A DNA stretch of 64,000 nucleotides from an uncultured Anaerolineaceae bacterium (GTDB lineage Bacteria; Chloroflexota; Anaerolineae; Anaerolineales; Anaerolineaceae), in NCBI GenBank assembly GCA_964593905.1, contig CAZQLE010000002.1, positions 3,387 through 67,386 of the forward strand, written 5' to 3'. Positions 11,420 to 40,814 of the stretch are shown one piece after another. Both the position numbers and the translations under genes were made by a program. Under the pieces are notes generated by a model. That model saw nothing but the letters and a program-made list of their open reading frames with translations, was not told where the DNA came from and ran no database searches. Within the stretch, counting starts at the first letter, position 1; each line of letters begins with the position of its first letter.

Positions 11420-13120
11420 TCACCAATTGATCAGGTCATCCATATCTTTGTCGGGTACATCGAAAATTGCCCCGGTGGGGGGCAGCGCCTCTTCGGTCAT
11501 CCATTCGGGCAGCCGATCATGGGCGGGGGTAAACCCGGCCTGGCGGTTAAACGCTCGTTCCAGCTTGATGGTTTCTTTGCCAAGGTCAGCCAGAATGTTT
11601 CGTTCAACGCCCCAGTCATAGCGGGCATTGATCAAATCTCTCAGGGTTGAGGGTGCGGCGGCAAACCCGAACCCGGCAAAAATGCAGGCCCCTAATGTGT
11701 CGTACCCTGCCATGTTGATCTGGGCATTGCGTGATAGGTTTACCTGACCCTCCGGGTTGAGGTGATCGACCTTGGCGCGAATGGTGAGGCCGCTGGTGTG
11801 ATCGGCGCCTTGCGCGCTGGTGGCATAGGTCACCCCGGTGCCCTTGATTGCTCGCGGGTCGTATGCTGAAATGGCCTGATTTTTAACCACTGGCACCCGG
11901 CGCACCCCTAAAACTTTGCCGGTGATTCCGGCCCCACAGCCCAACAGACGACCGAGCGGGGTGCCGCGATAGATTTCATCCATCAGCTCCATCGCCCGCA
12001 TTCCATCGCCAAAGGCCAACAATCCGGCTTGAGCGGCGACGCCCATTGCCGCCCCCAGGTCGATGGTGTCGAGCCCCAGGTCATTTGCGTACCAGTTCAG
12101 CTTTGCGATGGTATCCAGGTTGTCGATGCCAAGATTCGATCCCATCAATCCGATGGTTTCATATTCCAGCGGCGAAACGGTCGAATTTCCATCCTGATCG
12201 CCAAAGTGATTGGAACAACGAATGGTGCAGCCTGCCATGCAGGCGTGGGTTGGATTGCTGGGTCTGGGGCGGTCTAATAGCGTTTGGCGCAGGGTCTCTC
12301 CGGTGATCGACTCAATTTCTTCAAATTGCCCATCGGAAAAACCCCGGGTTGGTAGCGCACCGAGACCATTGCACAGCGCCGCAATGCCGGCTGTGCCGAA
12401 GTCGCGATAGACCGCAGTCTGGGGCTGGGCCATCAGGGCCTGGGTAAATTCCTTTTGTGCGGTCTTGAATGCTTCAATATTCCGGATGGGCGGTTTTTCG
12501 CCCTGACTGCCATCCCAGATGATGGCTTTGATCTTTTTTGAGCCCATTACGGCCCCCAGGCCGCCGCGCGCATTGATGCGCGATGGGATGCCGTCTTTGT
12601 CCAGGTTCTGAATGCCGGCGGACAAGAGCTGCATTTCTCCGCCCAACCCGATTAGGGAAATGGCTACTTTGCTGCCGAAGCGGTCGATAAGGTGTTTTGC
12701 GGTTTCATAGACGCCTTTGCCGGTGAGATTGCCGGCTGGTTCAAAGGAGACCCCGCTGTGGGATACGATCATCAGTTGAAAGGCTGCTTCCGGGGGCTCA
12801 TCTTCGATGATCAAGGTTTTGATGCCCAGGTTTGTAATTTGCAAACCGGTGGAACCACCGGCGTTGCTTTCCTTAATTCCACCAGTCAGCGGGCTTTTTC
12901 CGCCAACCGAGATGCGGTCACAGCTCGACAGCATGTGACCGACCAGTAAACCCGGGGCAAAGATGAGTTTGTTATGTCGGCCAAGGGGATCGCAGGCGGC
13001 AGGTACTTCATCCAGCAAGATGCGTGCAATTAACCCCCTGCCCCCCAGCCGATCCCAGGTTTCAGGAACTGCTTCACAGTTGAAGGTTTTCGTACGGACA
13101 TTGACTCGCCAGACCTGCAT
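11420..13120 (-). CDS. aor: Aldehyde:ferredoxin oxidoreductase family (tungstopterin enzyme)
   Basis: N-terminal AOR_N-like RVNVRTKTF...RLGGRGLIARIL and an AOR C-terminal domain. ATG at 13120 is preceded by GGGAGGTGG; the track GTG start lies inside this RBS. Confidence 0.85.
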   Translation of the reverse strand: MQVWRVNVRTKTFNCEAVPETWDRLGGRGLIARILLDEVPAACDPLGRHNKLIFAPGLLVGHMLSSCDRISVGGKSPLTGGIKESNAGGSTGLQITNLGIKTLIIEDEPPEAAFQLMIVSHSGVSFEPAGNLTGKGVYETAKHLIDRFGSKVAISLIGLGGEMQLLSAGIQNLDKDGIPSRINARGGLGAVMGSKKIKAIIWDGSQGEKPPIRNIEAFKTAQKEFTQALMAQPQTAVYRDFGTAGIAALCNGLGALPTRGFSDGQFEEIESITGETLRQTLLDRPRPSNPTHACMAGCTIRCSNHFGDQDGNSTVSPLEYETIGLMGSNLGIDNLDTIAKLNWYANDLGLDTIDLGAAMGVAAQAGLLAFGDGMRAMELMDEIYRGTPLGRLLGCGAGITGKVLGVRRVPVVKNQAISAYDPRAIKGTGVTYATSAQGADHTSGLTIRAKVDHLNPEGQVNLSRNAQINMAGYDTLGACIFAGFGFAAAPSTLRDLINARYDWGVERNILADLGKETIKLERAFNRQAGFTPAHDRLPEWMTEEALPPTGAIFDVPDKDMDDLINW

Positions 13121-13142
13121 TGAAACCACCTCCCTGTGTAAA

Positions 13143-22641: not shown

Positions 22642-23940
22642 TTATTGCGTAACGGGTTGTTGCCCTGGCCGGTCAAGCAAAAATAAAGAGGCACCCAGCA
22701 GCCGCAATGATCCGCTTACCAGTAAGGCGCCGGGCAGGCCAATTGTTTCGGCCAACAGGGATGCCAACAGCGGCGCTGCGATTGCCGCGCAATATTCGAG
22801 ACTCTGGGCAACCGAGACAAAGGTGGCGCTGTATTCTGGTGGGATTGTTTTTAATAATTCATCAAAGAAGACCAGATTAATGCCGGCCTGGAAGATGCCG
22901 GCAATGCCGGCATAGACCACGATCAGGGCCGGGGTCTGGGTGAAAGCGGTTAAGATCGGGTAGGAAGCCAGGCCGAAAGTGGTCAACAGGAGCACGAACC
23001 TTGACCCTCTTCGGCGTGATTGCCGGGTCCAGAAAAAATAACCGATGATCAATATGGCCGTCTGGGCGGTATTAATGGCGGCGATCCAGCCATCGGAGGC
23101 GTTAATCTGGCGGACAAAATATAACGGGAACAACGGCAAACCGAGATTTGCCCCGGTGAGGTAGACAAACCGTTTGAATACAAAGGATACAAACGGGCGG
23201 TTTGCGGTGATCTGTTTGTAGTAGGAGTGGATTTTCTCTTTCAGATTGGGGCCGGGAAGTGGGGCATCCACTTGAATGTCGGCGATTCGAATCCGGCTGG
23301 AGAAGGTGTAGCTGATGATCGATCCGATGGAAGTGGTTAGAAAGACGGTCTGAAAGTTTAGCGGAAACTTGATGCTGACCAGCACCTGACCGATGGCAAG
23401 GGCAACCAGTGAGGAGGTTAACCCCAACAATGACCAGCGCCGGGTCATTAATTCATATCTTCCGGCAGGCCCTGCAACGGCATTCATGACCACTGAAAAC
23501 GAAATTGCCAGAACTGTCTGTGGCAGGGTTGCCACGGCCCAGATACATAAGATTGCAATTACGGCGGCCTGGGTGTCTTTGAAAATAAAGGGCACCAGAC
23601 CGGTTAACCCATAGCTGCCGATGACCAGCAGGCGGGAGCTGCTAAACCATCTGACTATATTTTTTTGGCGCTGGAGAAAACGCCCGATCAGGATTGCAAA
23701 AAATAAACCGGTAACCCCGGGCATGGTGGTCAGTAAACCAACTTCCAGGCTGCTGGCCCCAAGCCGGGTGAGGAAAACGGAGAGCATCTGGGCGGCCGCA
23801 TTTCCCAGACCAACACCAACGGCGTCAATCTGAACGTTAACAAAATTCTCTTCACTGATATCGGGGGACTGCGGTGTTCGAAACCATTTAATTAAATTCA
23901 AAAGGCCCCCTCTACGTGATCGGGTTAATTTGAATATCAA
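22642..23940 (-). CDS. MFS transporter
   Basis: About 12 hydrophobic helices and an MFS-like loop GRFLQRQKN. The TTG track start overlaps the upstream stop by 29 nt; an alternative TTG at 23901 is possible. Confidence 0.75.
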   Translation of the reverse strand: MIFKLTRSRRGGLLNLIKWFRTPQSPDISEENFVNVQIDAVGVGLGNAAAQMLSVFLTRLGASSLEVGLLTTMPGVTGLFFAILIGRFLQRQKNIVRWFSSSRLLVIGSYGLTGLVPFIFKDTQAAVIAILCIWAVATLPQTVLAISFSVVMNAVAGPAGRYELMTRRWSLLGLTSSLVALAIGQVLVSIKFPLNFQTVFLTTSIGSIISYTFSSRIRIADIQVDAPLPGPNLKEKIHSYYKQITANRPFVSFVFKRFVYLTGANLGLPLFPLYFVRQINASDGWIAAINTAQTAILIIGYFFWTRQSRRRGSRFVLLLTTFGLASYPILTAFTQTPALIVVYAGIAGIFQAGINLVFFDELLKTIPPEYSATFVSVAQSLEYCAAIAAPLLASLLAETIGLPGALLVSGSLRLLGASLFLLDRPGQQPVTQ

Positions 23941-26173
23941 ACTCGCCGGCTGAAAGCGTCAAGGGTGCGCCCAGCAGAATGTCGTACCTTTGCCGCCAGA
24001 GCAATTGCTCGCGGATGAAGTGCAGCCAGTAAATTTCACCGGCCGGTGAGTGCATTTGTTCAAGACGGCGGTCAATTTCATCGATGGACGGCCTGTCAGG
24101 GTGATCTGTGGGGCTTAGGGCCCAGGCCAGGGTCTGGGTGGAATATTGATAAATATTGCCCGCTGCCGAAACCGCCGTGATCTGGCGCAGGCTGGAATGC
24201 GCCCGGAGCGCGACAATCCGTTTGAGGTCGCTTTCGCCTCCGAGGGTTAATATCTTTTGTCCATTGGACACGCCCCAGATATGAACTGCCCCACGTGCAC
24301 CGGCGCTGAGAATGTAGCGTTCATCAGAGGTAAGGCAGATTTCGCCAAATTTTTCGAGATCATTGGAAATCTGAATCCGGTTGAGTTCTTTGCCGCTGAA
24401 GATATTCCAGATGCAGATGTTGTGATCTGTGCCATACGAGGCGGCCAGCTCTCCGGTGGAGGTGCTCAGCGAAGTTATGGCGCCCGAATGTCCTTTCAGG
24501 GTGCGCAGCGTCCCTCTGGCATCTGCATTCCAGATATGGATTTCACCCTGACCATCGCCGATCAACACATCTCCGCGGCGTGTAGCTGCCAGGGCGTAAA
24601 TTTCACTGCCCGACTGATAGATCGGTTCCTGCCCGCCGGTGGGAAAGCGCCAGCGATTGACAACTCCGTCAAATCCGGCGCTGAAGAGGGTGCGTTCATC
24701 CTGGCTTAGCACGATTGCACGCACCAGATTGCTGTGGCCGGAGAGCGTTTTGATCAGCTTTCCCTCGGGCAGCAGATAGATGCGGATGGATTGGTCGGGG
24801 TTGGCGGCTGCCAGATAAGCGCCATCCTGGGTCAGCAGCAGCACGTTTTGCTGGGGTGTGGGAGGATAGAAAATTGATTTTTCCCAGGTGTTGTCGCTGT
24901 GCGTGGCAAACAGGATGCGGTTGTCAGCGGTTCCGAGCGCCAGGCTTTGCCCCGAAGGCGTGAAGGTGGCTGAAATCACTTCGCCATCCAGCCAGTGAGA
25001 CTGATCGGGTCTCAGTGAAGCCAGCGCGGACAGGGTGCATTTGTGCGCCAGATCGGTTAAGCGCAGGAGCAGTTCTTTTTCTTCAGATGACTGTGGCTGC
25101 CAGGCGGCTTTTTTTAACAGACGAACGCCTTCCAACGCCCACCAGGGCGGCGCGGTTTGGACGAGCACCCACAGCGATGCGTAATCTGCTTTTTTGAAAA
25201 GCGCCTGAAAGGCTGCTGCCCAATCGGCATCCTGCAGGTCTGAAATGGAGCGGGTTTTTGAGATGCCGGGTGCATTTTGCAGCCAGTCAATCTGACCGGA
25301 ATAACGGCTTTGAGCCAGAATTTTCTTTTTGAGCACCGAGCTGGCGCGTTCGTATCCGCTGCGGATTAGACGGCGGTCAAAATCGAGGGTTTCATAGGGG
25401 GCCCACTGCCCGGATATGAAGTAAAACAGCGCCCGGTCGGTCGGGTCGGCGGGGGCCCAACCCTGTTGCAGCGCCAGTTGGCAGGCAGGTTCGGCATCCC
25501 AGCGCAAATAAAGCTGACAGACTGCATCCTGGGCGAGAGGGTTGGCGGGGCCGGCAATCTGAGCCAGGGTTTGCACCGTTAGAGTGCGTTCGGGCCCGGT
25601 CATGGCCGCATACTGGTTGACCAGTTGGTCAAACGCTGCCGGGGTTGGCCCGGAAACGCAGGCTGCCAGCGCAGCCCAATGGTGGAGCCTGGCGCTCGCT
25701 GCCGCCTGAAGGAGGAGGGTGCGGGCATCTTGCTCTGCCCGTAGAAAATAAGCGGTCAGGTGTTGTAAATTGGGGTCGTGCGCCTGCAACGATTGGATCT
25801 GTGCGCTGATTAACAGAAAGGCAGACTGTTGGCCCGCATCGGGGTGGGCGAGGCTGTGTTCGATAATCTCTTGCCGGGCATAGCGGTTTGCAGACGCAAT
25901 GCTCAGCTCAAAGAGTGCATCGATGGCCGGTGCGCTGCCCTGTTTTGCCAGCCGGGCCAGACCGTTGGCGGCGCGCAGGTGAATTGCCTCACACGAGGCG
26001 CGCAGGACGGTTTGTCTCAGAATTTGGATGGCCGCTTCGCCGCCGTCTTCAATTAATAACTGCAACGCCCCAACCTGGGTAAGCAAAAAAATATCTGCTT
26101 GGGATGGGTCTTCCGGCAGAAGTTCTGGTTTTAGAATATCCCGATAGCGGGCAAGCTGCTGTGTTTCGATCAT
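23912..26173 (-). CDS. HEAT-like helical repeat plus C-terminal WD40 beta-propeller protein (paralog A)
   Basis: WD repeats LSGHSNLVRAIVLSQDERTLFSAGFDGVVNRW, LKGHSGAITSLS, HNICIWNI and GAVHIWGV. Central motif ALFYFISGQWAPYETLDFDRRLIRSGYE is shared with 29642-32305. ATG at 26173 forms an ATGA overlap with the radical-SAM stop. Confidence 0.75.
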   Translation of the reverse strand: MIETQQLARYRDILKPELLPEDPSQADIFLLTQVGALQLLIEDGGEAAIQILRQTVLRASCEAIHLRAANGLARLAKQGSAPAIDALFELSIASANRYARQEIIEHSLAHPDAGQQSAFLLISAQIQSLQAHDPNLQHLTAYFLRAEQDARTLLLQAAASARLHHWAALAACVSGPTPAAFDQLVNQYAAMTGPERTLTVQTLAQIAGPANPLAQDAVCQLYLRWDAEPACQLALQQGWAPADPTDRALFYFISGQWAPYETLDFDRRLIRSGYERASSVLKKKILAQSRYSGQIDWLQNAPGISKTRSISDLQDADWAAAFQALFKKADYASLWVLVQTAPPWWALEGVRLLKKAAWQPQSSEEKELLLRLTDLAHKCTLSALASLRPDQSHWLDGEVISATFTPSGQSLALGTADNRILFATHSDNTWEKSIFYPPTPQQNVLLLTQDGAYLAAANPDQSIRIYLLPEGKLIKTLSGHSNLVRAIVLSQDERTLFSAGFDGVVNRWRFPTGGQEPIYQSGSEIYALAATRRGDVLIGDGQGEIHIWNADARGTLRTLKGHSGAITSLSTSTGELAASYGTDHNICIWNIFSGKELNRIQISNDLEKFGEICLTSDERYILSAGARGAVHIWGVSNGQKILTLGGESDLKRIVALRAHSSLRQITAVSAAGNIYQYSTQTLAWALSPTDHPDRPSIDEIDRRLEQMHSPAGEIYWLHFIREQLLWRQRYDILLGAPLTLSAGEFDIQINPIT

Positions 26174-26748
26174 TCGTCCTGCCAACGCAAAGGGGTCGTG
26201 CCGCTGAAAAGCAGTTCACCGGCGGCAGAAATCATTACCTCGGCCTCGGGCAAGTTTTGGAGATCGGCGGCAGAATAGCGGTTGGTCATAAAATGCACGG
26301 TCTGGTTCTTTGAACTGAGGTATCCGTGGCTTGCTGGCGCCTGCTGCCTGTAACGGCCAGCAAACAACAGGTCAATCTGGTTCAAAATTGCCGGGCCCAG
26401 TTTTTGGCGGTTTATTTCTTTAAAATTGTACCCTGAAAACACGACGACGCTCAGCGTCGAACGTTTGCGGAGCAGCGCTAAAAACGCCAGCAGACTTTCG
26501 GGCTGCTGCAACGGCTCGCCCCCGGTAAGGGTAATGCCCTCAATTTCGGCTGCGCCCATAAGACATTGTTCCACCAATTGTTCAACCGCGATCAGGTTTC
26601 CACCTGTGGCGGGGTGGGTGTGAGGATTGAAACACCCCGGGCAGCCCAGCGTGCAGCCCTGCACCCAGATGACCGCGCGGCGTCCCGGGCCATTGGCGCG
26701 GCTTAACGGCGCGTAATGATGTACGCGCAACAGGGCCGGGGCGGTCAT
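26170..26748 (-). CDS. Small radical-SAM protein of the NrdG / glycyl-radical-activase type (192 aa)
   Basis: NGPGRRAVIWVQGCTLGCPGCFNP (CX3CX2C directly after an NGPG box) and TLTGGEPL. Confidence 0.8.
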   Translation of the reverse strand: MTAPALLRVHHYAPLSRANGPGRRAVIWVQGCTLGCPGCFNPHTHPATGGNLIAVEQLVEQCLMGAAEIEGITLTGGEPLQQPESLLAFLALLRKRSTLSVVVFSGYNFKEINRQKLGPAILNQIDLLFAGRYRQQAPASHGYLSSKNQTVHFMTNRYSAADLQNLPEAEVMISAAGELLFSGTTPLRWQDE

Positions 26749-26960
26749 GATCCGGTTTTTCGTTCAATCCGGTTGCGCAAATCCAGGGGCAGTTCTTGAT
26801 CGTACAGCTCGGGGGTCATTTCCTGTTCAATCAATTCTCCACCCAGCGCCATCGAAAGGCTTTCAGTCAGGGTTAGACACTGCTCTCCCTTGACGCCGCG
26901 CACATGAATTTGGACTTTGCCGTGTTCGTCGATAATGACTTCCACTTCTTCAATTTCCAT
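26745..26960 (-). CDS. DUF2997-like small protein (71 aa)
   Basis: MEIEEVEVIIDEHGKVQIHVRGVKGEQCLTLTESLSMALGG matches my recollection of DUF2997. AGGTG RBS and an ATGA overlap with the radical-SAM start. The track start at 27077 would overlap DUF1257. Confidence 0.6.
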   Translation of the reverse strand: MEIEEVEVIIDEHGKVQIHVRGVKGEQCLTLTESLSMALGGELIEQEMTPELYDQELPLDLRNRIERKTGS

Positions 26961-26970
26961 TACCACACCT

Positions 26971-27345
26971 CTATACGATCCGGCGCAATACCAGATGAAT
27001 CTGGTTTTGTTCTTTTGTCTCTTCGGCCAGGGTAAAGCCCTGTTCCTGGAGTTTTTCGAGAGCCGCGTGATAGGCATAGCGCTGCAACAGGGCGGTGGTC
27101 AGTTGTTCACGATCTTTTTTTCGCACGCCCCACCAATCGGCGACCATCTCAAACGCCCCGTTGTTAAATTTCAGGCCGACATCATAACTAAACGGGATGT
27201 GAATTTTCAGTTGAACGGTATCAGCTTCTTGCATACCGCGCAGGTGAAATTCACCCTCTTCGACCTGATAACCCAGGTCTTTCAGGGCGGTGAGCACAAA
27301 CTTTTTTTCAACCATACGGGTTCGTAAACGCGATATGTGCGACAT
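26971..27345 (-). CDS. DUF1257 (Ycf35-like) protein
   Basis: MSHISRLRTRMVEKKFVLTALKDLGY...YDVGLKF...FEMVADWW...LLQRYAYHAALEKLQEQGF is colinear with the Ycf35/DUF1257 pattern (from memory). Confidence 0.7.
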   Translation of the reverse strand: MSHISRLRTRMVEKKFVLTALKDLGYQVEEGEFHLRGMQEADTVQLKIHIPFSYDVGLKFNNGAFEMVADWWGVRKKDREQLTTALLQRYAYHAALEKLQEQGFTLAEETKEQNQIHLVLRRIV

Positions 27346-27357
27346 CTTTTCCTCTAA

Positions 27358-28947
27358 TCAGGTCAAACGAACTACAGGAAATTGATTATAAACCTGTTTG
27401 CCGGTAATCACATCACGGGCGGTGATGGTCAGGCGCTTGTTGTGATCGATAAAGAATTCCACATCAAAACGGGCCTCACCGCGCGAAGCCGGAGGGTTGG
27501 CCTGTAAAAAGGTAGGAGAATGCTCGTTCATCCAGAATAAAGTGCGCTGTTCATGGTCATCAGCCGATATGGGAACAATGCGGGCCGCTCCGCCCGGATC
27601 GAATATCAGCTCGACCCCTTCCCGGCGGGCGGTTTTCGGGTCGCCCATCTCAAAAATTGCCAGGCCAAGTTGTTTTTGACCGTCAAACGCGGCTTTGACC
27701 GAAAGCCGGGCGACAGAATTTTCTGTCGGGTAGGGTGTACCGCGCTGCACAAGAGGGTGGTAGTCATATTTGCCACTCTCGCTGTTGATGTAGCGAATGG
27801 CGTAATCATGCTGGATGTGATCAAAGAAATCGACCCCGGCAGCAAATGCAGCCGCGCCGCGGGCGATGGCATCAAAAGGATGCTGATGAAAAACCCGTTC
27901 TTTGCCAAACAGGGTGCGCATTGTTTTTTGGACGGCCGGGATCAGGCTGCTGCCGCCAACCATCAACACGGCCGAAATGGAGTCTTCGTCGTAACCGCGT
28001 TCGCGCGCCATATTGACCGCGCTGCGGATGACGCTGTGCACCTGGGTTAGAAGGTCATGGGCTTCGAGGATCTCTTCAAATCGTGCGCGGGTGAATTCGG
28101 CCATCAGAATTTCACCCGTATCAGGGTTCATCAGGCTGAACTCTGACTGGTCTTTAAATGAAAGTTCCTCTTTAATCCGTTCACATTCCACCAGAATGGC
28201 ATTGCTAAGCCGTCGTACGGTTTCTTCACCTTCTTCGCGGTGATTGCTGGCCAGAACATCTTCATACAACCATTGATCAATAGCCGATCCGCCTATATCT
28301 CGTCCGGCTTTTCCCAACACCCGGCAGCGGCGGCCATTTTTGGCAGCCGCATCTTCTTCCATTCGTACCACAGCAGCGTGCATGGTGCCGCCGCCAAAAT
28401 CGAACACCAGATAAACACTGCCCGGTTGAATATGCGCGCCATATCCCAGCGCAGCAGCAGACGGCTCATCGATCAACCGATAACGGGGCAGACCTGCGTT
28501 TTCGGCAACGGAGGCGAGCCAGTTTTCATAATGCTCGTAAGCCTCAACCGGAACGCTGAACGCAATTTCTTCATCTTTAAGTTCAAGTTCCTGCGCCAGA
28601 ATGATCAAGACGGTGGATAGAAAATTTTGCCCGGCCAGATAGGGTGTGATTTCCCGGTCATCCACCCGGATTTTTACCGGGCTGCGGTTGCCGATGTACC
28701 GTTTCATCCAGCGAAAGGTGCGGGGTGATTGATAAAGGCCGCGCTGGATCACCTGATTGCCGATCCATTGGCGTTGATCGGCCGTGTAATGGATCAGTGA
28801 AGGAATGACCGAAATGCGGCCGGTATCCTGACCGAGCAAACGGCCATATTCCGGCAGGTGATGAACTTCACCCTGCTGTTGATGCTCATCCCAACGTGCA
28901 ATGACCGTATTGGAAGTGCCAAAATCAATTGCAATGCGACCGCTCAA
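27358..28947 (-). CDS. Non-canonical Hsp70/DnaK-family ATPase (529 aa)
   Basis: Actin-fold NBD motifs IAIDFGTSNT, LIDEPSAAALGYG, VFDFGGGTMH and MVGGSSLIPAV. Short divergent C-terminal domain with no EEVD tail. Confidence 0.85.
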   Translation of the reverse strand: MSGRIAIDFGTSNTVIARWDEHQQQGEVHHLPEYGRLLGQDTGRISVIPSLIHYTADQRQWIGNQVIQRGLYQSPRTFRWMKRYIGNRSPVKIRVDDREITPYLAGQNFLSTVLIILAQELELKDEEIAFSVPVEAYEHYENWLASVAENAGLPRYRLIDEPSAAALGYGAHIQPGSVYLVFDFGGGTMHAAVVRMEEDAAAKNGRRCRVLGKAGRDIGGSAIDQWLYEDVLASNHREEGEETVRRLSNAILVECERIKEELSFKDQSEFSLMNPDTGEILMAEFTRARFEEILEAHDLLTQVHSVIRSAVNMARERGYDEDSISAVLMVGGSSLIPAVQKTMRTLFGKERVFHQHPFDAIARGAAAFAAGVDFFDHIQHDYAIRYINSESGKYDYHPLVQRGTPYPTENSVARLSVKAAFDGQKQLGLAIFEMGDPKTARREGVELIFDPGGAARIVPISADDHEQRTLFWMNEHSPTFLQANPPASRGEARFDVEFFIDHNKRLTITARDVITGKQVYNQFPVVRLT

Positions 28948-29438
28948 AATGGAACCTCTATCATGGCGTCAACGCCGATTTTTCGAATAATCTTGTCGCC
29001 CAAACTCACACCGCAAACCTTGATTATTACCGGGTCATCGGGCGCAATGGACTGATTGCTCCCGAGCAGAAGGTGTTGATCGGGATCGTATGCCGTGGGT
29101 TGGCCGATTTCGCCGGTGAAGGCAACCCCTTTTTTTGACAGGGTTTTTTCAAGCTGTGAAAAGACGCGCAGAACATCGTTGACGCCCACTTTGCTGTTTT
29201 CGGCGGCTGCCAGGCGCGCTTGCGTTTTCCACTGAATCAGCATGGGTGCAAGTTCGGCTATGAGCTGCTCAAAAATTTGTATGTCTGCATCCTGAGAAAA
29301 TAACAGATGCTGTTCTTTTTGTATGCGCAGCTCTTTTTCAAGGTCGGATAGACGCTGATTTTTCTCAAACAACTCGGATTCCAGCGCCTGAATTTTTGCC
29401 TGTGAATCTTGATTAGGGTCTGCGAATTTCGGGTTCAT
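28944..29438 (-). CDS. GrpE-like nucleotide exchange factor
   Basis: N-terminal coiled coil (KIQALESELFEKNQRLSDLEKELRIQKE) and a C-terminal beta domain with AYDPDQHLLL resembling the GrpE FDPxxHxA motif. ATGA overlap with the Hsp70 start. Confidence 0.55.
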   Translation of the reverse strand: MNPKFADPNQDSQAKIQALESELFEKNQRLSDLEKELRIQKEQHLLFSQDADIQIFEQLIAELAPMLIQWKTQARLAAAENSKVGVNDVLRVFSQLEKTLSKKGVAFTGEIGQPTAYDPDQHLLLGSNQSIAPDDPVIIKVCGVSLGDKIIRKIGVDAMIEVPF

Positions 29439-29641: not shown

Positions 29642-32305
29642 TTAAAGAAGAATATCGTACGCCCCCGGCTTTACATGGGTTAGAACATCAATTTGAACCT
29701 CAAAGCGGTAGTGGTATTGCAGGCAGGCTTGAAGTAACCGCATCCACTTGAGCGTTTGTGAAGCGATGTTATCTGCTGACTGCCACTGCTCCAATAAGGT
29801 GATTAACCCGGCCGGTTGAGCCGAAATGGGGCGATTCCAGTTGTTTGAAAAATCCTGAATCCGCAGATCCCACAGCGAAATGCCGTTTTCGCGCGACCCA
29901 AGGGCAAGGAAGGCGCCGTCGGGTGAGGCGTGAACCGATGTAATATTTTGCCACGGAGATTTAATGGCAGCCAGCAGCTCTAATGATTCGGTAAACAGAT
30001 TTAGATCACCATTTAACCAGGCCACTGCCACCCCTGAACGAGTGGGCAGTTGAATTAACCCCGAGCATTTGGCATCATTTTTAACCAGCGAACGGATTTG
30101 CATGGCTTCACGCCCGGTTTTTTGGGAAAAAATTATGATCTGCCCGTTGGCCAACCCCACCCAGAGCTGTCCGGTTGAATCGGTACCGCACTGCTGGGCG
30201 ATGCTGCGTTTTGTTCCGGGTGTTTTCAACGGGTAAGAGACCAGCCGCCCGCCGGTTTTAAAATCTTCCAGACGAACCGAGTGGAGCATTTCATCAAGCA
30301 GATACAGGAATTTCTCGTCGGGTGAGTTGCAAATGGTGCGAAATGTGCGCGAGAGATTAATTTCGCTGACTTCTGCGGGGTCGAATACGTCCAGTTGGCA
30401 GACACGCATATCGGCGCCGCTGGTGATCAGGGTTCGATCTCCCATTACCAGCAGTGCGGTAACCGACCCCAGATGCTGGTTTAGTTTGCGGGTCTCTTTA
30501 CCATTCCATAACCACACCGAACAGGGTTCTGTGCGTTTTGCGGCGCGCTCTCCCCAGATAATTTCACCCGAAGGGAGACTTTCAACCCGATAGGCTGAAT
30601 GTGCCAGGTTGTCCATCCGGGCGGCAATGACCGCCTCCTGGTAATTCCAACGTACAATTGAGCGGCTGCCCGAGGCGATGGTGAGCAACGGCTCAACCGG
30701 CGAGAAGCTCAAATCATTAATCCGTCCGCTTACCCTGATTTGTGATTGCATTGCCAGCGCAGCAAAAGCCGGTTTTTCAAATTGACCGGCAAAGGAAGCG
30801 TGGATCTGTTTTAGTTCGTTATAAAACACGATATCTTGCTCACCGGGCAACCACTCTGAACGGAAAATTTCTTCCAGCGCCCGGGCAGCGCAAGTAAGTG
30901 GCAAATCGAATAATAATTGCCAAAGCTGGTCCCAGCTTTGATGGTTGATGTGGATATCGATCAGCAGATCTGCTTCATCGCAGCCCATTTCAGGGCGGGC
31001 AGATGTGCTTTTGGCAGAAGATAAAATCTCCAAATCTTCCGGCCGGCCGGCGGACTGAATTTTGCGCGAAATTCGCTTGCGCAGTTCGGGCGCAGCGGCC
31101 GTATACAGCGCCCGCAAAACGCGGCGGTCAAAATCCAGCGCATCATAAGCTGCATATTGCCCGGTGAGATAATAAAACAACGCGCGATCTTCAATTTTGA
31201 TCGGTGCATAACCTGCTTCGGTGGCGATTTTTAACGCGCGGGCGTGGTTTTGGTTGAGCGCCAACCGGCAAAATTCATCCACTGCCGCCCGATCTTGCAA
31301 ACCAGACAGAGCCTGTTGAACATTGGTCTGGATAATGGGGTCTGGCTCATCGATCCACTGGAGGAGGTGGGCAATTGCTTCGGGAATTGTGGTCTCAGAA
31401 ATTAAAGATGCGCCGACTTTGGCACGGGTGAGCAGCCGCAGCGACAGCGGGGCTGAGGCCGTATATTTTGCCCGTACCAGAATATCTTCCAGGTCTGATG
31501 AGCGGGTATCTGCCCACTGCTGGCAAAAAACATCGACTGAGGGTTGAGTGGGCAATGAAGCGCAGAGAAAGCCCGCATTGTGCTGCAAGGCGGGGCTGAC
31601 ATCGTGCATTGCATCGATCAAAATCGGTACAGCTTCTGCGATAACCGGTGTTAACCATTCGGGATGATTGGTCAGCAATGCCGTATATACCACAGCGCGC
31701 AATGGTTCGGTGGGATGATATTGTGTTGCAGTAATTAATGCTGCCAGTGTCGCATCGCGGGTGACCATCCATAATTTGCAAAGGGCGTTGATTGCGTCTT
31801 GCCGTTTGAGGTTGGAAAGCGCATTCCGGGCCCGTTCGGCGACCAGAGGGTCCTTATCTTCACGTTTGATTACCAGAGCGGGAATGAGATCTTCATTAAT
31901 CAAACGTTCCGTATTCTTTTTGTTTAACACCAGCAGGCTTAATGCACGCATCTCTGGCGGGTGTCTGGCGGGTTGATCCAATTCGAGCAGCAGTTCACGG
32001 ATCACCGCGGGGCGATGGTTGCTGGCGTAAACATCCCATAGGATGTCTATCGCAATATTGGAACGAAGGCTGATGAACAGATCGTGCACCGCGCTGTGAA
32101 TTTCAGGGTCATCATACAGCATTAAAAATTTGGCGCATAAGCGCAGCGCCGATTGGTCGCCAGCCCTGGCAAGCTGCACCAACTGGTTCACCGCGGTGCG
32201 CTGCGCCCAACCGCTGACCACGGGGAATTGGATATTGGCGAGGCGTTCCCAGCGCTGTGCTGCGGCGGAGGGCAGAGCGGTGCGTTTTGAGCGATAAGAA
32301 GGCAT
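29642..32305 (-). CDS. HEAT-like repeat plus degenerate WD40/beta-propeller protein (paralog B)
   Basis: Shares ALFYYLTGQYAAYDALDFDRRVLRALY with paralog A. HEAT-like N-terminal half. C-terminal half has repeated beta-strand units (GISLWDL, SIVRWNY, SVWLWNG). Start is 2 nt after the AAA+ stop. Confidence 0.7.
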   Translation of the reverse strand: MPSYRSKRTALPSAAAQRWERLANIQFPVVSGWAQRTAVNQLVQLARAGDQSALRLCAKFLMLYDDPEIHSAVHDLFISLRSNIAIDILWDVYASNHRPAVIRELLLELDQPARHPPEMRALSLLVLNKKNTERLINEDLIPALVIKREDKDPLVAERARNALSNLKRQDAINALCKLWMVTRDATLAALITATQYHPTEPLRAVVYTALLTNHPEWLTPVIAEAVPILIDAMHDVSPALQHNAGFLCASLPTQPSVDVFCQQWADTRSSDLEDILVRAKYTASAPLSLRLLTRAKVGASLISETTIPEAIAHLLQWIDEPDPIIQTNVQQALSGLQDRAAVDEFCRLALNQNHARALKIATEAGYAPIKIEDRALFYYLTGQYAAYDALDFDRRVLRALYTAAAPELRKRISRKIQSAGRPEDLEILSSAKSTSARPEMGCDEADLLIDIHINHQSWDQLWQLLFDLPLTCAARALEEIFRSEWLPGEQDIVFYNELKQIHASFAGQFEKPAFAALAMQSQIRVSGRINDLSFSPVEPLLTIASGSRSIVRWNYQEAVIAARMDNLAHSAYRVESLPSGEIIWGERAAKRTEPCSVWLWNGKETRKLNQHLGSVTALLVMGDRTLITSGADMRVCQLDVFDPAEVSEINLSRTFRTICNSPDEKFLYLLDEMLHSVRLEDFKTGGRLVSYPLKTPGTKRSIAQQCGTDSTGQLWVGLANGQIIIFSQKTGREAMQIRSLVKNDAKCSGLIQLPTRSGVAVAWLNGDLNLFTESLELLAAIKSPWQNITSVHASPDGAFLALGSRENGISLWDLRIQDFSNNWNRPISAQPAGLITLLEQWQSADNIASQTLKWMRLLQACLQYHYRFEVQIDVLTHVKPGAYDILL

Positions 32306-32307
32306 GT

Positions 32308-33846
32308 TTATTTTTTGGATTTAAGCTCAAGCTGAATGGGCACAAACTGATTGGCGGCTTCTTCAAACTCCTGGAAGGAAGCCGATTGGGCGCGCCCTTC
32401 ACGCAGCCAGTTGCGCAGGGTGTCGATGCGTTCGCGCTGTGAGATACTGAGCGGCACCTGTTTGTGAACGGCAGTCATAATATCGGCAGTGGTAAACTCT
32501 CGCTGGTGGTCATTGAAGCCGATATACATGGCATCGATGACCGCCTGTTCAATTTCAGACCCGACATAACCGCTGGTTTCAGCGGCAAGCTGGCTGATTT
32601 GAAAATCAACCGGCAGGCGACCGCGTTTTTTGAGATGAACGGAAAAAATTTCTTCACGCTCTTCCTGGGTTGGCAGATCGAGGAAAAAAATCTCATCAAA
32701 ACGGCCGCGGCGCAGCAATTCGGGCGGCAGACTGGCGATATCATTTGCCGTGGCTACCACAAAGACGGGTGAGGTTTTTTCCTGCATCCAGGTCAAGATG
32801 GTTCCAAAAACGCGGGTGGAGGTGCCGCTGTCAAGCCCGCCGTGGGCCAGCGCTTTTTCCATTTCATCGATCCACAAGATACACGGCGCAACGGTTTCTA
32901 CCAGATGCAGAGCGCGGCGCACTCGTTCTTCCGATTCGCCAACCAATGAGCCGAATAATGCTCCAACATCCAACCGGACCAGCGGCAGCCGCCAGAGACC
33001 ACCGATCATTTTTGCGGTCAGGCTTTTGCCGGTGCCGGGAATGCCGATCAGGGCTATTCCCTTGGGAGAGGGAAGCCCGTAACGTCGGGCTTCGTGGGTG
33101 AAGGCTTGTTCACGCAGGCGCAGCCAGTTTTTTAACACCCCCAGCCCACCAACATCTTCAGGAGATTCAAGCGCTGAAAAGAACTCCAGCGCTTCATTTT
33201 CACGGATGATCTGTTTTTTTTCTTCGGTTACCAGGTCGATATCGCGCTCATCCAGTATGCCGTCGCGGACAATGGCTTTGGCAAATACGCGCTGCGCCTG
33301 GGCAGCGGTCAGCCCCAGCGCTGCCTGGAGCAGCTTCTCTCTGCCCAGAGAGGTCAGGTCAACCTTTACGCCGGGGGTGGCGGTGAGAGAATTCAATACC
33401 CGATCCAGATCTACGGTGGAAGGCAGTGGGTAATCCAGCAAAATGGCCTCATCGCGCAGCTCTTCCGGGATTTTGGCAACCGGAGCTGTGATGATGACCG
33501 ACTTTTTGGAAAATTTTAATCGCTGGCAAACGCTGCGCAGTTTGCGTTTGATTACCGGGTTTGACCAGGATTCGTGGAAATCTTTAAGGATGTATACAGC
33601 GCTGTTGTTGCGGTCTGCTTTTTCAATTTGATCGAGCGCACTGAGCGGGTCTTTACCCGCAGTGGGGCCGCCCGTGCCCGAAAGGGTCTGAAACCCATCG
33701 GCCACATCCCACGAGGCGCAAAGGCGGCTGCTGCGGTCACATAGATTTTTAATAGCCGCAACCATACGTTCCTCTTCGGGAGAAACCAGGATGATCAACG
33801 TAAATTTGGAACGCAAATACATATCCAATTGTTCTTCAAAGTTCAC
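32308..33846 (-). CDS. Ycf46-like classical AAA+ ATPase
   Basis: Walker A GIPGTGKS, Walker [20 protein letters not shown]-terminus [27 protein letters not shown] resembles Ycf46. GTG 33846 is preceded by GGAGG. The track ATG at 33996 lies upstream of the predicted promoter and 10 nt from zur. Confidence 0.8.
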
Positions 33847-33903
33847 AATGGCCTCCGGTTGAGGGCAGCAGCCGATCATTTCATGACATAATCTTGTGGG
33901 GGG

Positions 33904-33932
33904 ATTATACTCTGTGTGAAGCAGATGGGCAA
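33904..33932 (-). promoter_or_regulatory. Promoter for the AAA+ operon
   Basis: Minus strand TTGCCC (33932-33927), 17 nt, TATAAT (33909-33904). Confidence 0.5.
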
Positions 33933-33951
33933 TTAAACAGCTTTGCCGGGT

Positions 33952-33980
33952 TTGACAGTCCTGCAAAAATGCCATACAAT
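33952..33980 (+). promoter_or_regulatory. Consensus sigma70 promoter for zur-znuCB
   Basis: TTGACA (33952-33957), 17 nt, TACAAT (33975-33980). Confidence 0.65.
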
Positions 33981-33995
33981 TGAAAAACGTTTTCA
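33981..33995. promoter_or_regulatory. Zur-box-like palindrome
   Basis: TGAAAA-ACG-TTTTCA immediately after the -10 element. It resembles the actinobacterial Zur box TGAAAATGATTTTCA (from memory). Confidence 0.55.
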
Positions 33996-34012
33996 TTTAT
34001 TGAGGTGTGCTG

Positions 34013-37079: not shown

Positions 37080-39107
37080 TTACTGTTCGCTGCTGCAAAA
37101 AGCAAAGTCTTGCACGTGGGTTAAGAATTTGTTTTTGGCGCTGGAATCTGCGGTTGAGCGATCAATGCGCTGGGTCAGCCGGCAGAGGGCGTTCTTTCTT
37201 TCTTCAAGCGAGAAGCTGAGGGCCAGGTCTGCGGCTTTTTGCCATTGGCCGGTCTGGGCAAAGGCTTCAATAAAGACCATCTTTTCCATCTCATCGCGTG
37301 GAGAGAAGCCCAGGCTTTCAGCTTCCTCCCAGTAGCCAACCACCTCAGTCCATTTTTTTCCCTGACGGGCAAGATCTGCTTTTTCAAAGTAATAGCACCA
37401 GGTGTGCTGTGGTTCGGGGCCAAACCAGTTCTCATGGACGGGCATGTCTGGCGGGGTGGTGAGCACCCGGCGCAGATCGGACAACCGGCTGGCACGCTGT
37501 AAATGTTCTGGCAAAGAAGGATCTCCGCCATCCAGGTCAGGTTCGGTCAGCCGGAAGCAGCGCCCCAGATCATATTGCGCTGCCAGTAACCGGTCGGTTG
37601 AACCCTCCAACCGGGCGGTTACATTTCTGCCGGTGACAGTTTGACCGGTGCTCAGCCCCTTTAACGATTCATCCAAATTGCGGCTATAGTGGAAACTGTA
37701 AGCCAGCCGGCGCGGCTGCGGTTGATAGGGATAAAGGGCATTGATCTCGGTGGTCAAGGCGGCCAGGTTGTAATAGCGGGTCGGAAAATCGGTCAAAAGC
37801 AGCAGGGTGTTTTCTTCAAGATCGGGGATGCGCCAGCGAATTTGCCAGAGCAATTGCTGGTTGTACTTCCATTCCAGACGAAAATCGTTGGCGATCTGAA
37901 AATGATAACCTGCGGCAATGCCAACCAACCCGGCCAGTAACACGCTCTGCACAATACGGTAAGGCAGGGCGGTGATCAGCCCGGCCATAAACAGGGCGGC
38001 GCCCAGCATGAAGGGTAGCGTGAAGCGCGAAAAAATCTCCACCGGCCTGACATCCAACCCGGTCAGCCAGAAGGGCCAACCAGCCGCCAGGATTGCCAGA
38101 ACACCCAGACCGATCATTTCAAGGGTGAAGCGTTTTTCACGGATGGCATTGATGAACCACCACGCCAGCCCGGCCATTGCCAGAACCACCAGGGCAACAA
38201 AGACGGTCACTGCGGTTGAGGTGAGGTGAATTTGCAGTGAGAGCAGCCGTTGTAGCGCGGGCAGCCATGCGCCAAAGGTGGTTTGCCAGAAATCTTCGGC
38301 TATTTTAACCAGCAACGCCCCCAGCGCCTGAAGCGGTGCAGCCTGAAATTCTGCCAGCCAGCGGAAGGAGTAGCGATTGGATTGGATCTGGGTCAGTAAA
38401 AAGGTGCGCACCAGAATTGTAGAAAGCAGAATGGCCCCGTAAAAGGCCCAGCCGCGCAGCGTTTTTACCAGCAGCCTGGGCAGGTTGGTCTCTGTTCTAA
38501 ACAGGATCAAGCCGATTATAAAGAAACGCAGGATTTCGAGTGTAAAAAAGTATTCCATCATTAAAAGATTTAAGATGGAAAGCAAACCGGCCAGCGCGTG
38601 CAGCCCATAAGCGGGCCTGTTTTGTTGCAGTGCGCGGGCGGTTAAACCCAGCGACAGGAATAAGAAAGCCATTACCAGAAAAATATGCCCATAGGTGATG
38701 GCAATGGGCTGCAACGCAAAACCGGGATAAACGGTAAAGAGCAGCGCTGCCACAAAGACCACTTTGCTGCGCTCGGGCCATATCTGACGTAGAAACCAGA
38801 AGAAGGTTAAGCTAGCCAGGAAACGACACAGCAGTGCAAAAATCTGGTATGCGAGAACATTGCCATCCAGCAAGGGCAGGGTGAGCTGATAAAGCAACCC
38901 CCACACGGGGCGGTTGGTTGAGAAATAAACGCGAACACCCTCAGCACCATAATATTCCCATGTCCAGGCCCAGATCCAATCATCAATATACAGGTGCAGC
39001 CAGGGGAGCTGTGTTCCGTAGGAAAACAGGGTGATTAGTGCAAGCACGAGGCTTTGACCAGAATTGTTTTGAACCAGTTTGGAGATGAATGAATAGATTT
39101 TTTGCAA
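37080..39107 (-). CDS. Polytopic membrane protein, possibly a GT-C-type (ArnT/PMT-like) glycosyltransferase, with a soluble C-terminal helical domain
   Basis: More than 10 hydrophobic helices. Function is a guess. Start set to TTG 39107 because the first 91 track codons have no helices and overlap the divergent lipoprotein gene. Confidence 0.45.
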   Translation of the reverse strand: MQKIYSFISKLVQNNSGQSLVLALITLFSYGTQLPWLHLYIDDWIWAWTWEYYGAEGVRVYFSTNRPVWGLLYQLTLPLLDGNVLAYQIFALLCRFLASLTFFWFLRQIWPERSKVVFVAALLFTVYPGFALQPIAITYGHIFLVMAFLFLSLGLTARALQQNRPAYGLHALAGLLSILNLLMMEYFFTLEILRFFIIGLILFRTETNLPRLLVKTLRGWAFYGAILLSTILVRTFLLTQIQSNRYSFRWLAEFQAAPLQALGALLVKIAEDFWQTTFGAWLPALQRLLSLQIHLTSTAVTVFVALVVLAMAGLAWWFINAIREKRFTLEMIGLGVLAILAAGWPFWLTGLDVRPVEIFSRFTLPFMLGAALFMAGLITALPYRIVQSVLLAGLVGIAAGYHFQIANDFRLEWKYNQQLLWQIRWRIPDLEENTLLLLTDFPTRYYNLAALTTEINALYPYQPQPRRLAYSFHYSRNLDESLKGLSTGQTVTGRNVTARLEGSTDRLLAAQYDLGRCFRLTEPDLDGGDPSLPEHLQRASRLSDLRRVLTTPPDMPVHENWFGPEPQHTWCYYFEKADLARQGKKWTEVVGYWEEAESLGFSPRDEMEKMVFIEAFAQTGQWQKAADLALSFSLEERKNALCRLTQRIDRSTADSSAKNKFLTHVQDFAFCSSEQ

Positions 39108-39195
39108 ACGAATACACCCGGTCAACCGTATTTTTTTGGAAAACTTGAAGTATTGTACGCAATTATAGTCTACAATAATGATGATGGAGGCATGG

Positions 39196-40668
39196 ATGCG
39201 GACACGGTGGTATTTATTTGTGGCATTAATCTTATTGAGCGGGTGTGCGGGTTTATCCACCCCGGATGTTCCTTTTAAGACTGTGACGCCCTCGCAGACG
39301 GCAAGTGTGGATACTGAGACGCCAGTTCCGGCGACTGCCACTCGCTTGCCGGATGTTATCCTTCCTGAGGGCACCGCCACGATTGCCCCGACAGAGACGC
39401 AGACCTTTCCGGGTGTATTTTTGCCAACCAGACCGCCCTTCCTTGCCGACGCGGTTCTGAATGGGAATGAGGTGCAAAACCCAATTCTGGAAAATTATAT
39501 GTCCGTTCCGGTTTACACCGTTACAGAAGAAATGCGGCCGGAGTGTTGGGAAGATTGTGTAAAGCGGGCATGGACATCGACCTATCGCCGGGTGATAATT
39601 CAACTAAATCGTGGAAAAACGGGTGAGGTCTCCAATTATGGACTGAATACCCTGTATCAGGCCTATACCAAATTTGGCGCCGCCTTTCAGATTGTGGATG
39701 CTTATGATGGCCCAGGGGATCGACGATGGGCGGGAAATTTAATGATTTCGGCCAATAATTATGAGTTTGTCGATTCGGCTGTTGTTGGAGAGATTCAAGC
39801 GACCATTTTCATCCGCAATAATTTTCTGGCGCAGATCCCTGAAGGAGAGACCGGCGCATCGGATTATCAGAAGTTTTTGGCCGAAGCGGCGCAGCGCGAT
39901 GCGGCGGATCTGTTGAATTTACAGCTCAACAAACTGGCCTGGGTCGGGTTTGAACCCGCTCCCGATTTGGTCTATTCGGTTGTCACATCCACGCCCCGTC
40001 CCACGCCGGTTTTGCCACCCGCCCGGCCGCTTGAGCTGACCGCTTTTCTTGATGAAACGGCAAATTGCAAACTGCCCTGTTGGAACCAATTAACCCCCGG
40101 GCTTTCGACCGAGGAAGAGGTGGCCCCATTCTTTCAGCGCTTTGGGTTGGATGCCGAGTCTGCTTATCGTGCGCAGTGCATTGATTTGAGCGGTTATCCG
40201 GCCGGCAATGCCAGCCAGACCGATCCGCAGGTGTGTGTTTTTTCCAATGATGGAATTGTCAACCGGATTCGACTTTCCAATTGGAGTCACCCTGAACAAT
40301 TTTCGCCCAAGCGGATCAATATCGTTCTAGGGACACCGGATGTCATTCTGGTACCCAGCGCGCCGCTGGATGACCCGGATGGCTTCGCGGTGGTGTTTAT
40401 CTACCCCAATCAGGGCGTGGCGCTTGAGATACACGGCAGGCTGGACCTTGAATTGCAGGGTTACATGTGTATTTCGGACCGCCGGTTTCAGTCGGCGACG
40501 GTGACCTTTTTTTCAGATGACCAGCGTTTCTTGTTGCAGCAGGAGTACCAATCCAGTGCACCCGCCTATGTGGACTGGTCTCAGGCGCGGGGGGAAACTG
40601 CACAAACCCTGTTTAATTTGCTGATTAATCCCGAGCGCTGCGTTCCTTACCCGGCGTATCGAAAATAG
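39196..40668 (+). CDS. Hypothetical lipoprotein
   Basis: MRTRWYLFVALILLSGC lipobox. ATG 39196 follows GGAGG. Confidence 0.6.
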   Translation: MRTRWYLFVALILLSGCAGLSTPDVPFKTVTPSQTASVDTETPVPATATRLPDVILPEGTATIAPTETQTFPGVFLPTRPPFLADAVLNGNEVQNPILENYMSVPVYTVTEEMRPECWEDCVKRAWTSTYRRVIIQLNRGKTGEVSNYGLNTLYQAYTKFGAAFQIVDAYDGPGDRRWAGNLMISANNYEFVDSAVVGEIQATIFIRNNFLAQIPEGETGASDYQKFLAEAAQRDAADLLNLQLNKLAWVGFEPAPDLVYSVVTSTPRPTPVLPPARPLELTAFLDETANCKLPCWNQLTPGLSTEEEVAPFFQRFGLDAESAYRAQCIDLSGYPAGNASQTDPQVCVFSNDGIVNRIRLSNWSHPEQFSPKRINIVLGTPDVILVPSAPLDDPDGFAVVFIYPNQGVALEIHGRLDLELQGYMCISDRRFQSATVTFFSDDQRFLLQQEYQSSAPAYVDWSQARGETAQTLFNLLINPERCVPYPAYRK

Positions 40669-40814
40669 CCGATTTGGGGAGTTTCGGCATATTCAATCGG
40701 TGATAAAACACAAATGGCAGCCGGGAGGCGGCAGGGTATAATGGGGATGCTTTTCAACCCAGTATGAAGTTCATGGCAAAAACCGAAAACCAGATTGTCC
40801 ACAGGAGAGTATGT

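Follow-up and report, generated by a model that had tools for sequence, protein, structure and literature searches.

The gene at positions 26170-26748 on the minus strand of a 64,000-nucleotide stretch of DNA from an uncultured Anaerolineaceae bacterium (contig CAZQLE010000002.1; the whole stretch is called the window in what follows) encodes a 192-residue, NrdG-like radical S-adenosylmethionine (SAM) protein. The protein belongs to a family that has the motifs and the predicted fold of the activases of glycyl radical enzymes, and the genes of this family mostly lie beside those for DUF2997, DUF1257 and an AAA ATPase, and not beside nrdD at the loci examined. We propose, tentatively and at slightly under an even chance of being correct, that the family derives from NrdG, has become uncoupled from ribonucleotide reductase and is dedicated to a conserved module in which DUF2997 is the most likely substrate. 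Until now, radical SAM enzymes of the activase type have been associated with glycyl radical enzymes; here the enzyme type is a familiar one, its partner and its module are not. A first-pass annotation of the window had described an orphan activase-type enzyme probably acting on one of the proteins of its gene cluster or on a small molecule, and the data below support that description.

The open reading frame (ORF) matches Pfam Fer4_12 (PF13353) over residues 18-152 (E 2.2e-27, 96.5 bits against a cut-off of 22) and Radical_SAM (PF04055) with 36.2 bits against a gathering cut-off of 29.5. It contains NGPGRR at residues 19-24, C32-x3-C36-x2-C39 and G76-G77-E78-P79, and on alignment with 24 homologues N19-G20-P21-G22-x-R24, the three cysteines and the GGEP residues are all invariant. 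Membership of the radical SAM superfamily is thus established by the CX3CX2C motif, the GGE-type motif and a Pfam score above threshold. The GPGxR loop directly upstream of CX3CX2C and a predicted fold like that of PflA are, in addition, features of the glycyl radical enzyme activases, and the activase-type N-terminus (NGPGxR, CX3CX2C, GGEP) noted in the first-pass annotation is borne out by both the ORF and the alignment. The conserved cysteines of the family alignment are limited to the three of CX3CX2C, with none that could serve an auxiliary Fe-S cluster, and a SPASM/twitch peptide-modifying maturase was ruled out because the extra conserved cysteines are missing.

Comparison with solved structures leads to PflA (PDB 3c8f/3cb8) by sequence profile as well as by predicted fold. 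In a profile search of the PDB with the family PflA is the best match (E 9e-18), and the GPGxR loop, together with the surrounding N-terminal stretch R-[IV]-H-x-F-E...GPGxR...QGC, aligns residue for residue. The AlphaFold model of the radical SAM protein has a predicted local distance difference test (pLDDT) score of 76.6, the core being well modeled and the last 23 residues poorly, and its fold matches peptide-bound PflA (3cb8, E 1e-7), with QueE in second place. There are nevertheless differences from PflA: sequence identity is 21-27%, the protein has 192 residues as against 246, no PFL-type partner accompanies it and it scores 62.5 bits on the PFLA model TIGR02493, for which the cut-off is 231.75. 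The PFLE_PFLC, YjjW and other activase models likewise score far below their cut-offs (40.7 against 174.35, for example).

The closest characterized family is NrdG. The best NCBIfam match is the NrdG model TIGR02491, which is covered from position 2 to 151 of 154, and most of the other NCBIfam matches are to glycyl radical enzyme activases. As in NrdG (E. coli b4237), the protein is a minimal radical SAM core, collinear across the entire NrdG sequence (29% identity to the E. coli protein over 156 residues), and the two have NGPGxR, GC-x3-CPGC-[FY]-N, SGG[DE]P, TGY and, near the C-terminus, GS-x-N-Q/K in common. The scores on the four NrdG models TIGR02491, NF008335, TIGR02495 and TIGR02826 are, however, 98.8, 66.1, 49.3 and 49.5 bits, with cut-offs of 126.1, 199, 131.15 and 151.7, respectively. 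For nine other members of the family, chosen from a range of phyla and gene contexts, TIGR02491 gives 85-114 bits, and for the E. coli NrdG control it gives 220. A hidden Markov model (HMM) that we built from the family gives its members 231-295 bits, with E. coli NrdG at 99, PflA at 75, YjjW at 61 and QueE at 14 (13.6). The family is further distinguished from NrdG by a conserved C-terminal extension of ∼38 residues with the pattern DL..VP.AE...G.....G..P, which is kept even in divergent phage copies, and by its coupling to DUF2997, DUF1257 and the AAA ATPase. Both the scores below all four cut-offs and the gap of 231-295 to 99 bits place the protein outside bona fide NrdG, an assignment that would have contradicted the first-pass annotation and that we ruled out on the basis of these scores and of gene context. 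Annotation names for the top homologues vary with the source and include 'anaerobic ribonucleoside-triphosphate reductase activating protein', '4Fe-4S single cluster domain-containing protein' and 'radical SAM protein'.

In the search for a cognate glycyl radical enzyme, E. coli NrdD, PflB and YjjI were used as tblastn queries against the window and 80 related genome loci, and no homologue was found at E≤1. Pfam searches of the ten largest other ORFs of the window returned TPR, C25-like peptidase, AlaRS, M17 peptidase, two aldehyde:ferredoxin oxidoreductase, NuoCD, 2-oxoacid:ferredoxin oxidoreductase and HD/GAF assignments and no glycyl radical enzyme, and a motif scan for R[VITLC]xG[YFW] was negative for every protein of the cluster. 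An enzyme or domain with RVxG[FYW] is therefore not found near the radical SAM gene, and the absence of a glycyl radical enzyme from the window, as first annotated, holds by all three approaches.

A scan of viral contigs provides the control. It returned 80 loci with radical SAM/NrdG-like genes, all with at most 37% identity, at which NrdD was sought with the same E. coli query within 8 kb of the NrdG-like gene. At 60 of them the NrdG-like gene lies near NrdD, and none of these 60 has DUF2997, DUF1257 or the AAA ATPase. At a further 11 the radical SAM gene is accompanied by one to three of these system genes, in no case with NrdD, and 8 loci have neither. Since NrdD was found at 60 viral loci, the search is able to detect a neighboring NrdD, and the two contexts, NrdD and system genes, are mutually exclusive. 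Had orthologs of the gene normally been found beside NrdD or another glycyl radical enzyme the orphan assignment would have failed; no such neighbor was found at any of the 80 genome loci or at any of the 11 family-type viral loci.

It might still be argued that the protein is a true NrdG and serves an NrdD encoded at another place in the genome. NrdG is, after all, the closest characterized family (29% identity, 98.8 bits on TIGR02491), the search for NrdD covered the window and the loci, and the source organism looks anaerobic, with two aldehyde:ferredoxin oxidoreductases and one 2-oxoacid:ferredoxin oxidoreductase encoded in the window (11420-13129, minus strand; 40764-42983 and 56121-57938, plus strand), enzymes that point to an anaerobic, ferredoxin-based metabolism. 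This explanation is very improbable given the scores below every NrdG cut-off, the absence of NrdD beside the family loci in genomes and viruses and its presence beside 60 NrdG-type viral genes, and the conserved translational coupling to unrelated genes. The family also occurs in Streptomyces and Actinomadura, and these genera are not known to use reductases other than those of classes I and II.

The cluster in which the gene lies consists of eight genes, running from 33996 to 23912 on the minus strand, that look like a single operon. With the transporter gene that follows, they are, in the direction of reading:

32308-33996, minus strand: classical-clade AAA ATPase, Cdc48/VCP D2-like, 562-residue ORF, matching phrog_8638
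29642-32305, minus strand: HEAT-repeat and WD40 beta-propeller protein A, 887 residues, its start overlapping the AAA ATPase stop by 4 nucleotides
28944-29438, minus strand: weakly GrpE-like protein, 164 residues (E 0.002-0.005, below cut-offs), its stop overlapping the Hsp70-like start by 4 nucleotides
27358-28947, minus strand: Hsp70-like protein, 529 residues, an actin-like ATPase domain followed by a C-terminal region of ∼150 residues without a family match
26971-27345, minus strand: DUF1257 (Ycf35-family) protein, 124 residues, from Pfam and alignment
26745-26960, minus strand: DUF2997 small protein, 71 residues from the ATG at 26960, with the near-invariant loop V-R-G-V-K-G-x-x-C, from Pfam and alignments
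26170-26748, minus strand: NrdG-like radical SAM enzyme, 192 residues, from Pfam, alignment, HMMs and fold model
23912-26173, minus strand: HEAT-repeat and WD40 protein B, its likely ATG at 26173 overlapping the radical SAM stop
22642-23940, minus strand: MFS-type transporter directly after HEAT-WD40 protein B, found at 17 Anaerolineae loci with 52-62% identity

Reading of the DNA places the stop of DUF2997 and the start of the radical SAM gene in one ATGA at 26745-26748, and the stop of the radical SAM gene and an in-frame ATG of HEAT-WD40 protein B in another at 26170-26173, so that the overlap-coupling to both neighbors claimed in the first-pass annotation is confirmed at each junction. HEAT-WD40 protein B would then likely start at the ATG at 26173 and not at the TTG at 26185. 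Three further junctions are just as tight, with 4-nucleotide overlaps of the AAA ATPase with HEAT-WD40 protein A and of the GrpE-like gene with Hsp70 and a gap of 12 nucleotides between Hsp70 and DUF1257; HEAT-WD40 protein A and the GrpE-like gene are ∼200 nucleotides apart. The AAA ATPase probably starts near 33879, because its homologues have ∼510 residues as against the 562 of the ORF. One metatranscriptome contig of 195 nucleotides, 100% identical to the window, spans the DUF2997/radical SAM junction; as a single contig, for which carry-over of DNA is possible, it is weak evidence for co-transcription. The source runs that contain the window sequence are biofilm, sediment, wastewater and sludge metagenomes.

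A homologue search with the radical SAM protein gives 2,456 protein clusters at E≤1e-5, the top ones of ∼190 residues, and a scan of one genome per species places the gene at no fewer than 595 loci (at least 595) in many phyla, including Chloroflexota, Planctomycetota, Verrucomicrobiota, Actinomycetota, Myxococcota, Eremiobacterota, Armatimonadota and Acidobacteriota. Many Anaerolineae have it, the cultured Bellilinea caldifistulae and Thermanaerothrix daxensis among them, and the Actinomycetota are represented by Streptomyces and Actinomadura. In order to count neighbors we took the best 80 of the at least 595 loci and searched their ORFs with the cluster proteins of the window, and then with HMMs rebuilt from the first matches. 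Of these loci, 53 have 4 kb or more to either side of the radical SAM gene, and among the 53 DUF2997 is present in 43, DUF1257 in 44, the AAA ATPase in 41 and the Hsp70-like protein in 38. The association with DUF2997 and DUF1257, whose constancy the first-pass annotation had put forward as a check, is thus confirmed and extends to the AAA ATPase. HEAT-WD40 and GrpE-like proteins are rarer, or harder to detect, the latter recurring in 16-17 loci. DUF2997 is mostly directly upstream of the radical SAM gene, with a 4-nucleotide overlap as the commonest spacing, and it keeps this position in most of the loci where the other genes are reordered.

The association extends to viruses. A minimal module of the radical SAM enzyme, the AAA ATPase (phrog_8638), DUF1257 and DUF2997, with neither Hsp70 nor HEAT-WD40 proteins, occurs on IMG/VR viral contigs, including one (L163, 7959-13184) that is clearly of phage origin, where genes for a UvsX-like recombinase, a resolvase, a thymidylate synthase and a helicase surround the module; other loci of this kind are L161, L088/L099, L089, L090, L087 and L091. 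Some of the radical SAM genes at system-type viral loci are very divergent (79-84 bits on the family HMM). In PHROGs the three partners are families of unknown function, phrog_8638 for the AAA ATPase (E 2.5e-148 for the window protein), phrog_20456 for DUF1257 and phrog_23133 for DUF2997. On the basis of the viral loci and the PHROGs families the minimal conserved module is AAA ATPase, DUF1257, DUF2997 and radical SAM enzyme.

Within this module DUF2997 is the best candidate for a substrate or partner of the enzyme because of its adjacency, its translational coupling and a conserved loop of glycine and cysteine residues. Across 28 loci G14, G25, C28, T32, L39 and E51 are invariant and G22, E36 and G40 nearly so, and G25 and C28 are kept in almost all of 149 diverse representatives and also in divergent phage copies. 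A profile search with DUF2997 yields 1,875 representative clusters at E≤1e-3. In the AlphaFold model, which is of low confidence (pLDDT 59.8), the G22-G25 loop is flanked on one side by a beta-hairpin and on the other, from about C28, by a helix. No solved structure was found for DUF2997 or DUF1257. DUF1257 has no conserved cysteine; its conserved features are a strict N-terminal MSH and the motifs ADW, QRYAY and LVLRR.

These observations suggest the following scheme. The core of the module is formed by the Cdc48-like AAA ATPase, DUF1257, DUF2997 and the radical SAM enzyme, to which Anaerolineae and several other phyla add the Hsp70-like, GrpE-like and HEAT-WD40 proteins. By analogy with PflA and NrdG, the [4Fe-4S] cluster would cleave SAM reductively to a 5'-deoxyadenosyl radical, and a residue in a loop of the target protein would lose a hydrogen atom to this radical. 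The GPGxR loop, which reportedly contacts the substrate peptide in the PflA-peptide structure, is retained in the radical SAM protein in alignment with the PflA loop. The putative target is the 71-residue DUF2997 protein encoded immediately upstream, with its G-x-x-G-x-x-C loop, and the product would be a protein radical or a one-off radical-mediated modification, and the unfoldase and chaperone components would then present, remodel or use the modified protein. The action of PflA on GrcA/YfiD is a precedent for an activase that places a radical on a small stand-alone protein, and the pairing of an activase with a small protein resembles what we propose; GrcA, however, is homologous to the glycyl-radical domain of PFL and carries RVSGY, whereas DUF2997 has neither the homology nor the motif. 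In its most specific form the scheme would make DUF2997, probably together with DUF1257, a new minimal substrate of activase chemistry outside the glycyl radical enzyme superfamily, with a radical or a radical-derived modification placed on the loop by the NrdG-derived enzyme and the product then used or remodeled by the Cdc48-like unfoldase, with or without Hsp70. We regard this detailed version as speculative, with a small chance of being right in all its parts.

A number of results count against DUF2997 as the target, or limit how it could be modified. The link between the enzyme and DUF2997 is drawn from gene context and sequence, and the model of DUF2997 is of low confidence. The DUF2997 profile has no similarity to E. 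coli NrdD, PflB or YjjI and RVxG[FYW] is absent; a cryptic glycyl-radical domain in DUF2997 was ruled out by this empty search. At ∼20% of the well-flanked loci close members of the radical SAM family have no DUF2997 nearby. Among the neighbors there are paired TldD/PmbA-like peptidases, a lantibiotic dehydratase of the LanB type, a protein with an FGE-type domain, DUF6687 and a kinase-AAA fusion. In variants with several AAA genes the radical SAM gene is several genes away from DUF2997. Furthermore, Prochlorococcus phage P-SSM2 has DUF2997, DUF1257 and two DUF6561 genes (PSSM2_178-181, L167:4802-5951), all four annotated as hypothetical, directly upstream of DNA polymerase gp43, and its DUF2997 (...VMGVIGNEC...) keeps G-x-x-G-x-x-C although over the 10.4 kb examined the annotation includes no radical SAM gene. 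The motif is therefore intrinsic to DUF2997 and not specific to systems that include the radical SAM enzyme, so that the P-SSM2 copy lowers, without removing, the case for DUF2997 as the target. Finally, Streptomyces and Actinomadura are obligate aerobes, and that they have the module speaks against a glycyl radical that is long-lived and sensitive to oxygen. A transient radical or a one-off modification is on this account more plausible than a stable glycyl radical.

Some of the same results bear on whether the enzyme might be directed at another protein. The activase motifs and the fold would serve equally well if the substrate were DUF1257, the AAA ATPase, the Hsp70-like protein or a client caught by the HEAT-WD40 scaffolds and fed by the Hsp70/AAA unfoldase. 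The AAA ATPase is indeed of the Cdc48/VCP unfoldase type, Hsp70-like and repeat-scaffold proteins co-occur with it, and a DUF2997 loop that is kept without the radical SAM enzyme may have another purpose. On the other hand, minimal modules of the phage and Eremiobacterota type keep the radical SAM gene without Hsp70 and HEAT-WD40, the larger cluster proteins contain no conserved motif resembling that of a glycine radical, and DUF2997 is the most constant immediate neighbor of the radical SAM gene. We consider such a substrate unlikely, if plausible enough to be kept in mind.

The loci at which the radical SAM family adjoins LanB, TldD/PmbA pairs or an FGE-sulfatase-domain protein are L055:6708-10615, L033:6275-10558, L065:7179-10549, L080:8025-10555 and L025:8661-10645, and the radical SAM proteins of L055, L065 and L080 score 231-246 bits on the family HMM. 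In favor of the main proposal, the LanB and TldD/PmbA contexts suggest peptide or protein substrates for the most part, the relevance of the FGE-type protein being less clear, and the family may serve several peptide- or protein-modification systems. In variant systems DUF2997 and the radical SAM gene are separated by two or three AAA paralogues, with three AAA genes preceding the latter in L031, L064 and L074, and the protein kinase-AAA fusion lies near the radical SAM gene in L072 (177-2507). One cluster, L085:1-10207, is decayed, with fragmented AAA and HEAT-WD40 genes and inserted transposases and phage-like genes; Hsp70, DUF1257 and DUF2997 are intact and the radical SAM gene is missing.

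A parallel to the module, and a further point that weighs against a SAM-dependent reaction on DUF2997, comes from cyanobacteria, where a duf2997-ycf35(DUF1257)-fed7 cluster is conserved according to a review of the Synechocystis ferredoxins (PMC4284462). The ferredoxin Fed7, of the [4Fe-4S] type, binds a DnaJ-like co-chaperone, and DnaJ-Fed7 fusions occur in algae (PMC4284462). The same two small proteins thus accompany a [4Fe-4S] protein that is connected to the Hsp70 system, and in view of the Fed7-DnaJ link the theme of DUF2997, DUF1257, a [4Fe-4S] protein and the Hsp70 system recurs. The partner differs, being a ferredoxin and not a SAM-cleaving enzyme, and no AAA, Hsp70 or HEAT-WD40 genes are reported in the cyanobacterial cluster. 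By this parallel the window protein could be a [4Fe-4S] redox protein, or an Fe-S sensor or partner of DUF2997/DUF1257, for which cleavage of SAM is not central. The invariance of GGEP and of the full activase core across the family would be unexpected if SAM chemistry were dispensable, and we consider a role of this kind improbable. Ycf35 has a further association in red-algal plastids, where the presence of ycf35 and that of ycf46 each track marine versus freshwater habitat (PMC5940233).

It is also conceivable that the enzyme has a small-molecule substrate, for example a nucleotide, and works like QueE or viperin. Its product would then be a signal, or else a nucleotide that is toxic or modified, for use by a conflict or stress system that the ATPases regulate. 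The compact partial-barrel radical SAM fold is like that of QueE and viperin, QueE is the second-best structural match, faint matches to pVip appear in PADLOC (E 0.005-0.01), the L163 phage copy lies among genes of DNA and nucleotide metabolism, and the phyletic distribution is patchy across many phyla. E. coli QueE, however, lacks the NGPGxR loop, which is not known outside protein-directed activases, and the protein scores 24.6 and 21.1 bits on QueE models with cut-offs of 300 and 260. The AAA ATPase resembles IetA (78.8 bits in PADLOC) and yet reaches 73 bits on the anti-phage IteA model of NCBIfam, for which the cut-off is 510, and DUF2997, DUF1257 and the HEAT-WD40 proteins have no match to a PADLOC defence model. 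In the Anaerolineae, moreover, the cluster is located in housekeeping synteny and not in a defence island: at 17 loci it is followed by the same MFS transporter, at several also by the same rhodanese and gcvH/gcvPA/gcvPB, a vertically inherited chromosomal arrangement and not a mobile island. A small-molecule substrate is, in our estimation, distinctly unlikely, and a known anti-phage defence system (PADLOC; IetAS/IteA; pVip) was ruled out by the weak or partial matches and the Anaerolineae synteny. The MFS transporter itself may be an accessory member of the cluster or plain conserved synteny.

As regards the remaining components, the AAA ATPase is closest to the D2 rings of Cdc48/VCP, an unfoldase type of the classical clade, and the Hsp70-like protein matches the DnaK and HscA models through its ATPase domain. 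A second type of DUF1257 paralogue, in which HLYGYxGDxRxQTAEVIIRR and IISE-YDR replace ADW-WGV, is present at L012:4155-4568, L018:4174-4668, L039:9572-9973, L041:14436-14843 and L052:12121-12528, beside the first type in L012 and L052. Elsewhere in the window, the plus strand at 49-5639 encodes a 954-residue TPR protein followed by a 909-residue protein with a C25 (gingipain-like) peptidase domain, and the minus strand at 37080-39380 has an ORF of 766 residues with no Pfam match at E≤1e-5.

No paper that describes the system came to light in full-text searches on DUF2997, DUF1257 and their combinations with radical SAM, Hsp70 and AAA proteins. The conflict systems of Kaur et al. 2020 (PMC7159879) were considered and ruled out, being other gene sets that contain Hsp70 and radical SAM proteins. 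The hallmarks of an activase, together with two domains of unknown function and an unfoldase, point to protein-radical or protein-modification chemistry without an earlier description. For the interpretation of genomes there is a more immediate consequence, as members of this radical SAM family often carry the label of an anaerobic ribonucleotide reductase activase, which can mislead metabolic reconstructions of anaerobiosis. Cultured hosts exist (Bellilinea caldifistulae, Thermanaerothrix daxensis, Streptomyces scabichelini) and the proteins are small, so that the proposal can be tested directly. Were DUF2997 to prove the substrate, the module would constitute a new class of protein-radical system common to phages, Chloroflexota, the Planctomycetota-Verrucomicrobiota-Chlamydiota (PVC) group, Actinomycetota and others, and would provide a first biochemical approach to the Ycf35/DUF2997 proteins of plastids and cyanobacteria, conserved proteins of unknown function that are also found in cyanophages.

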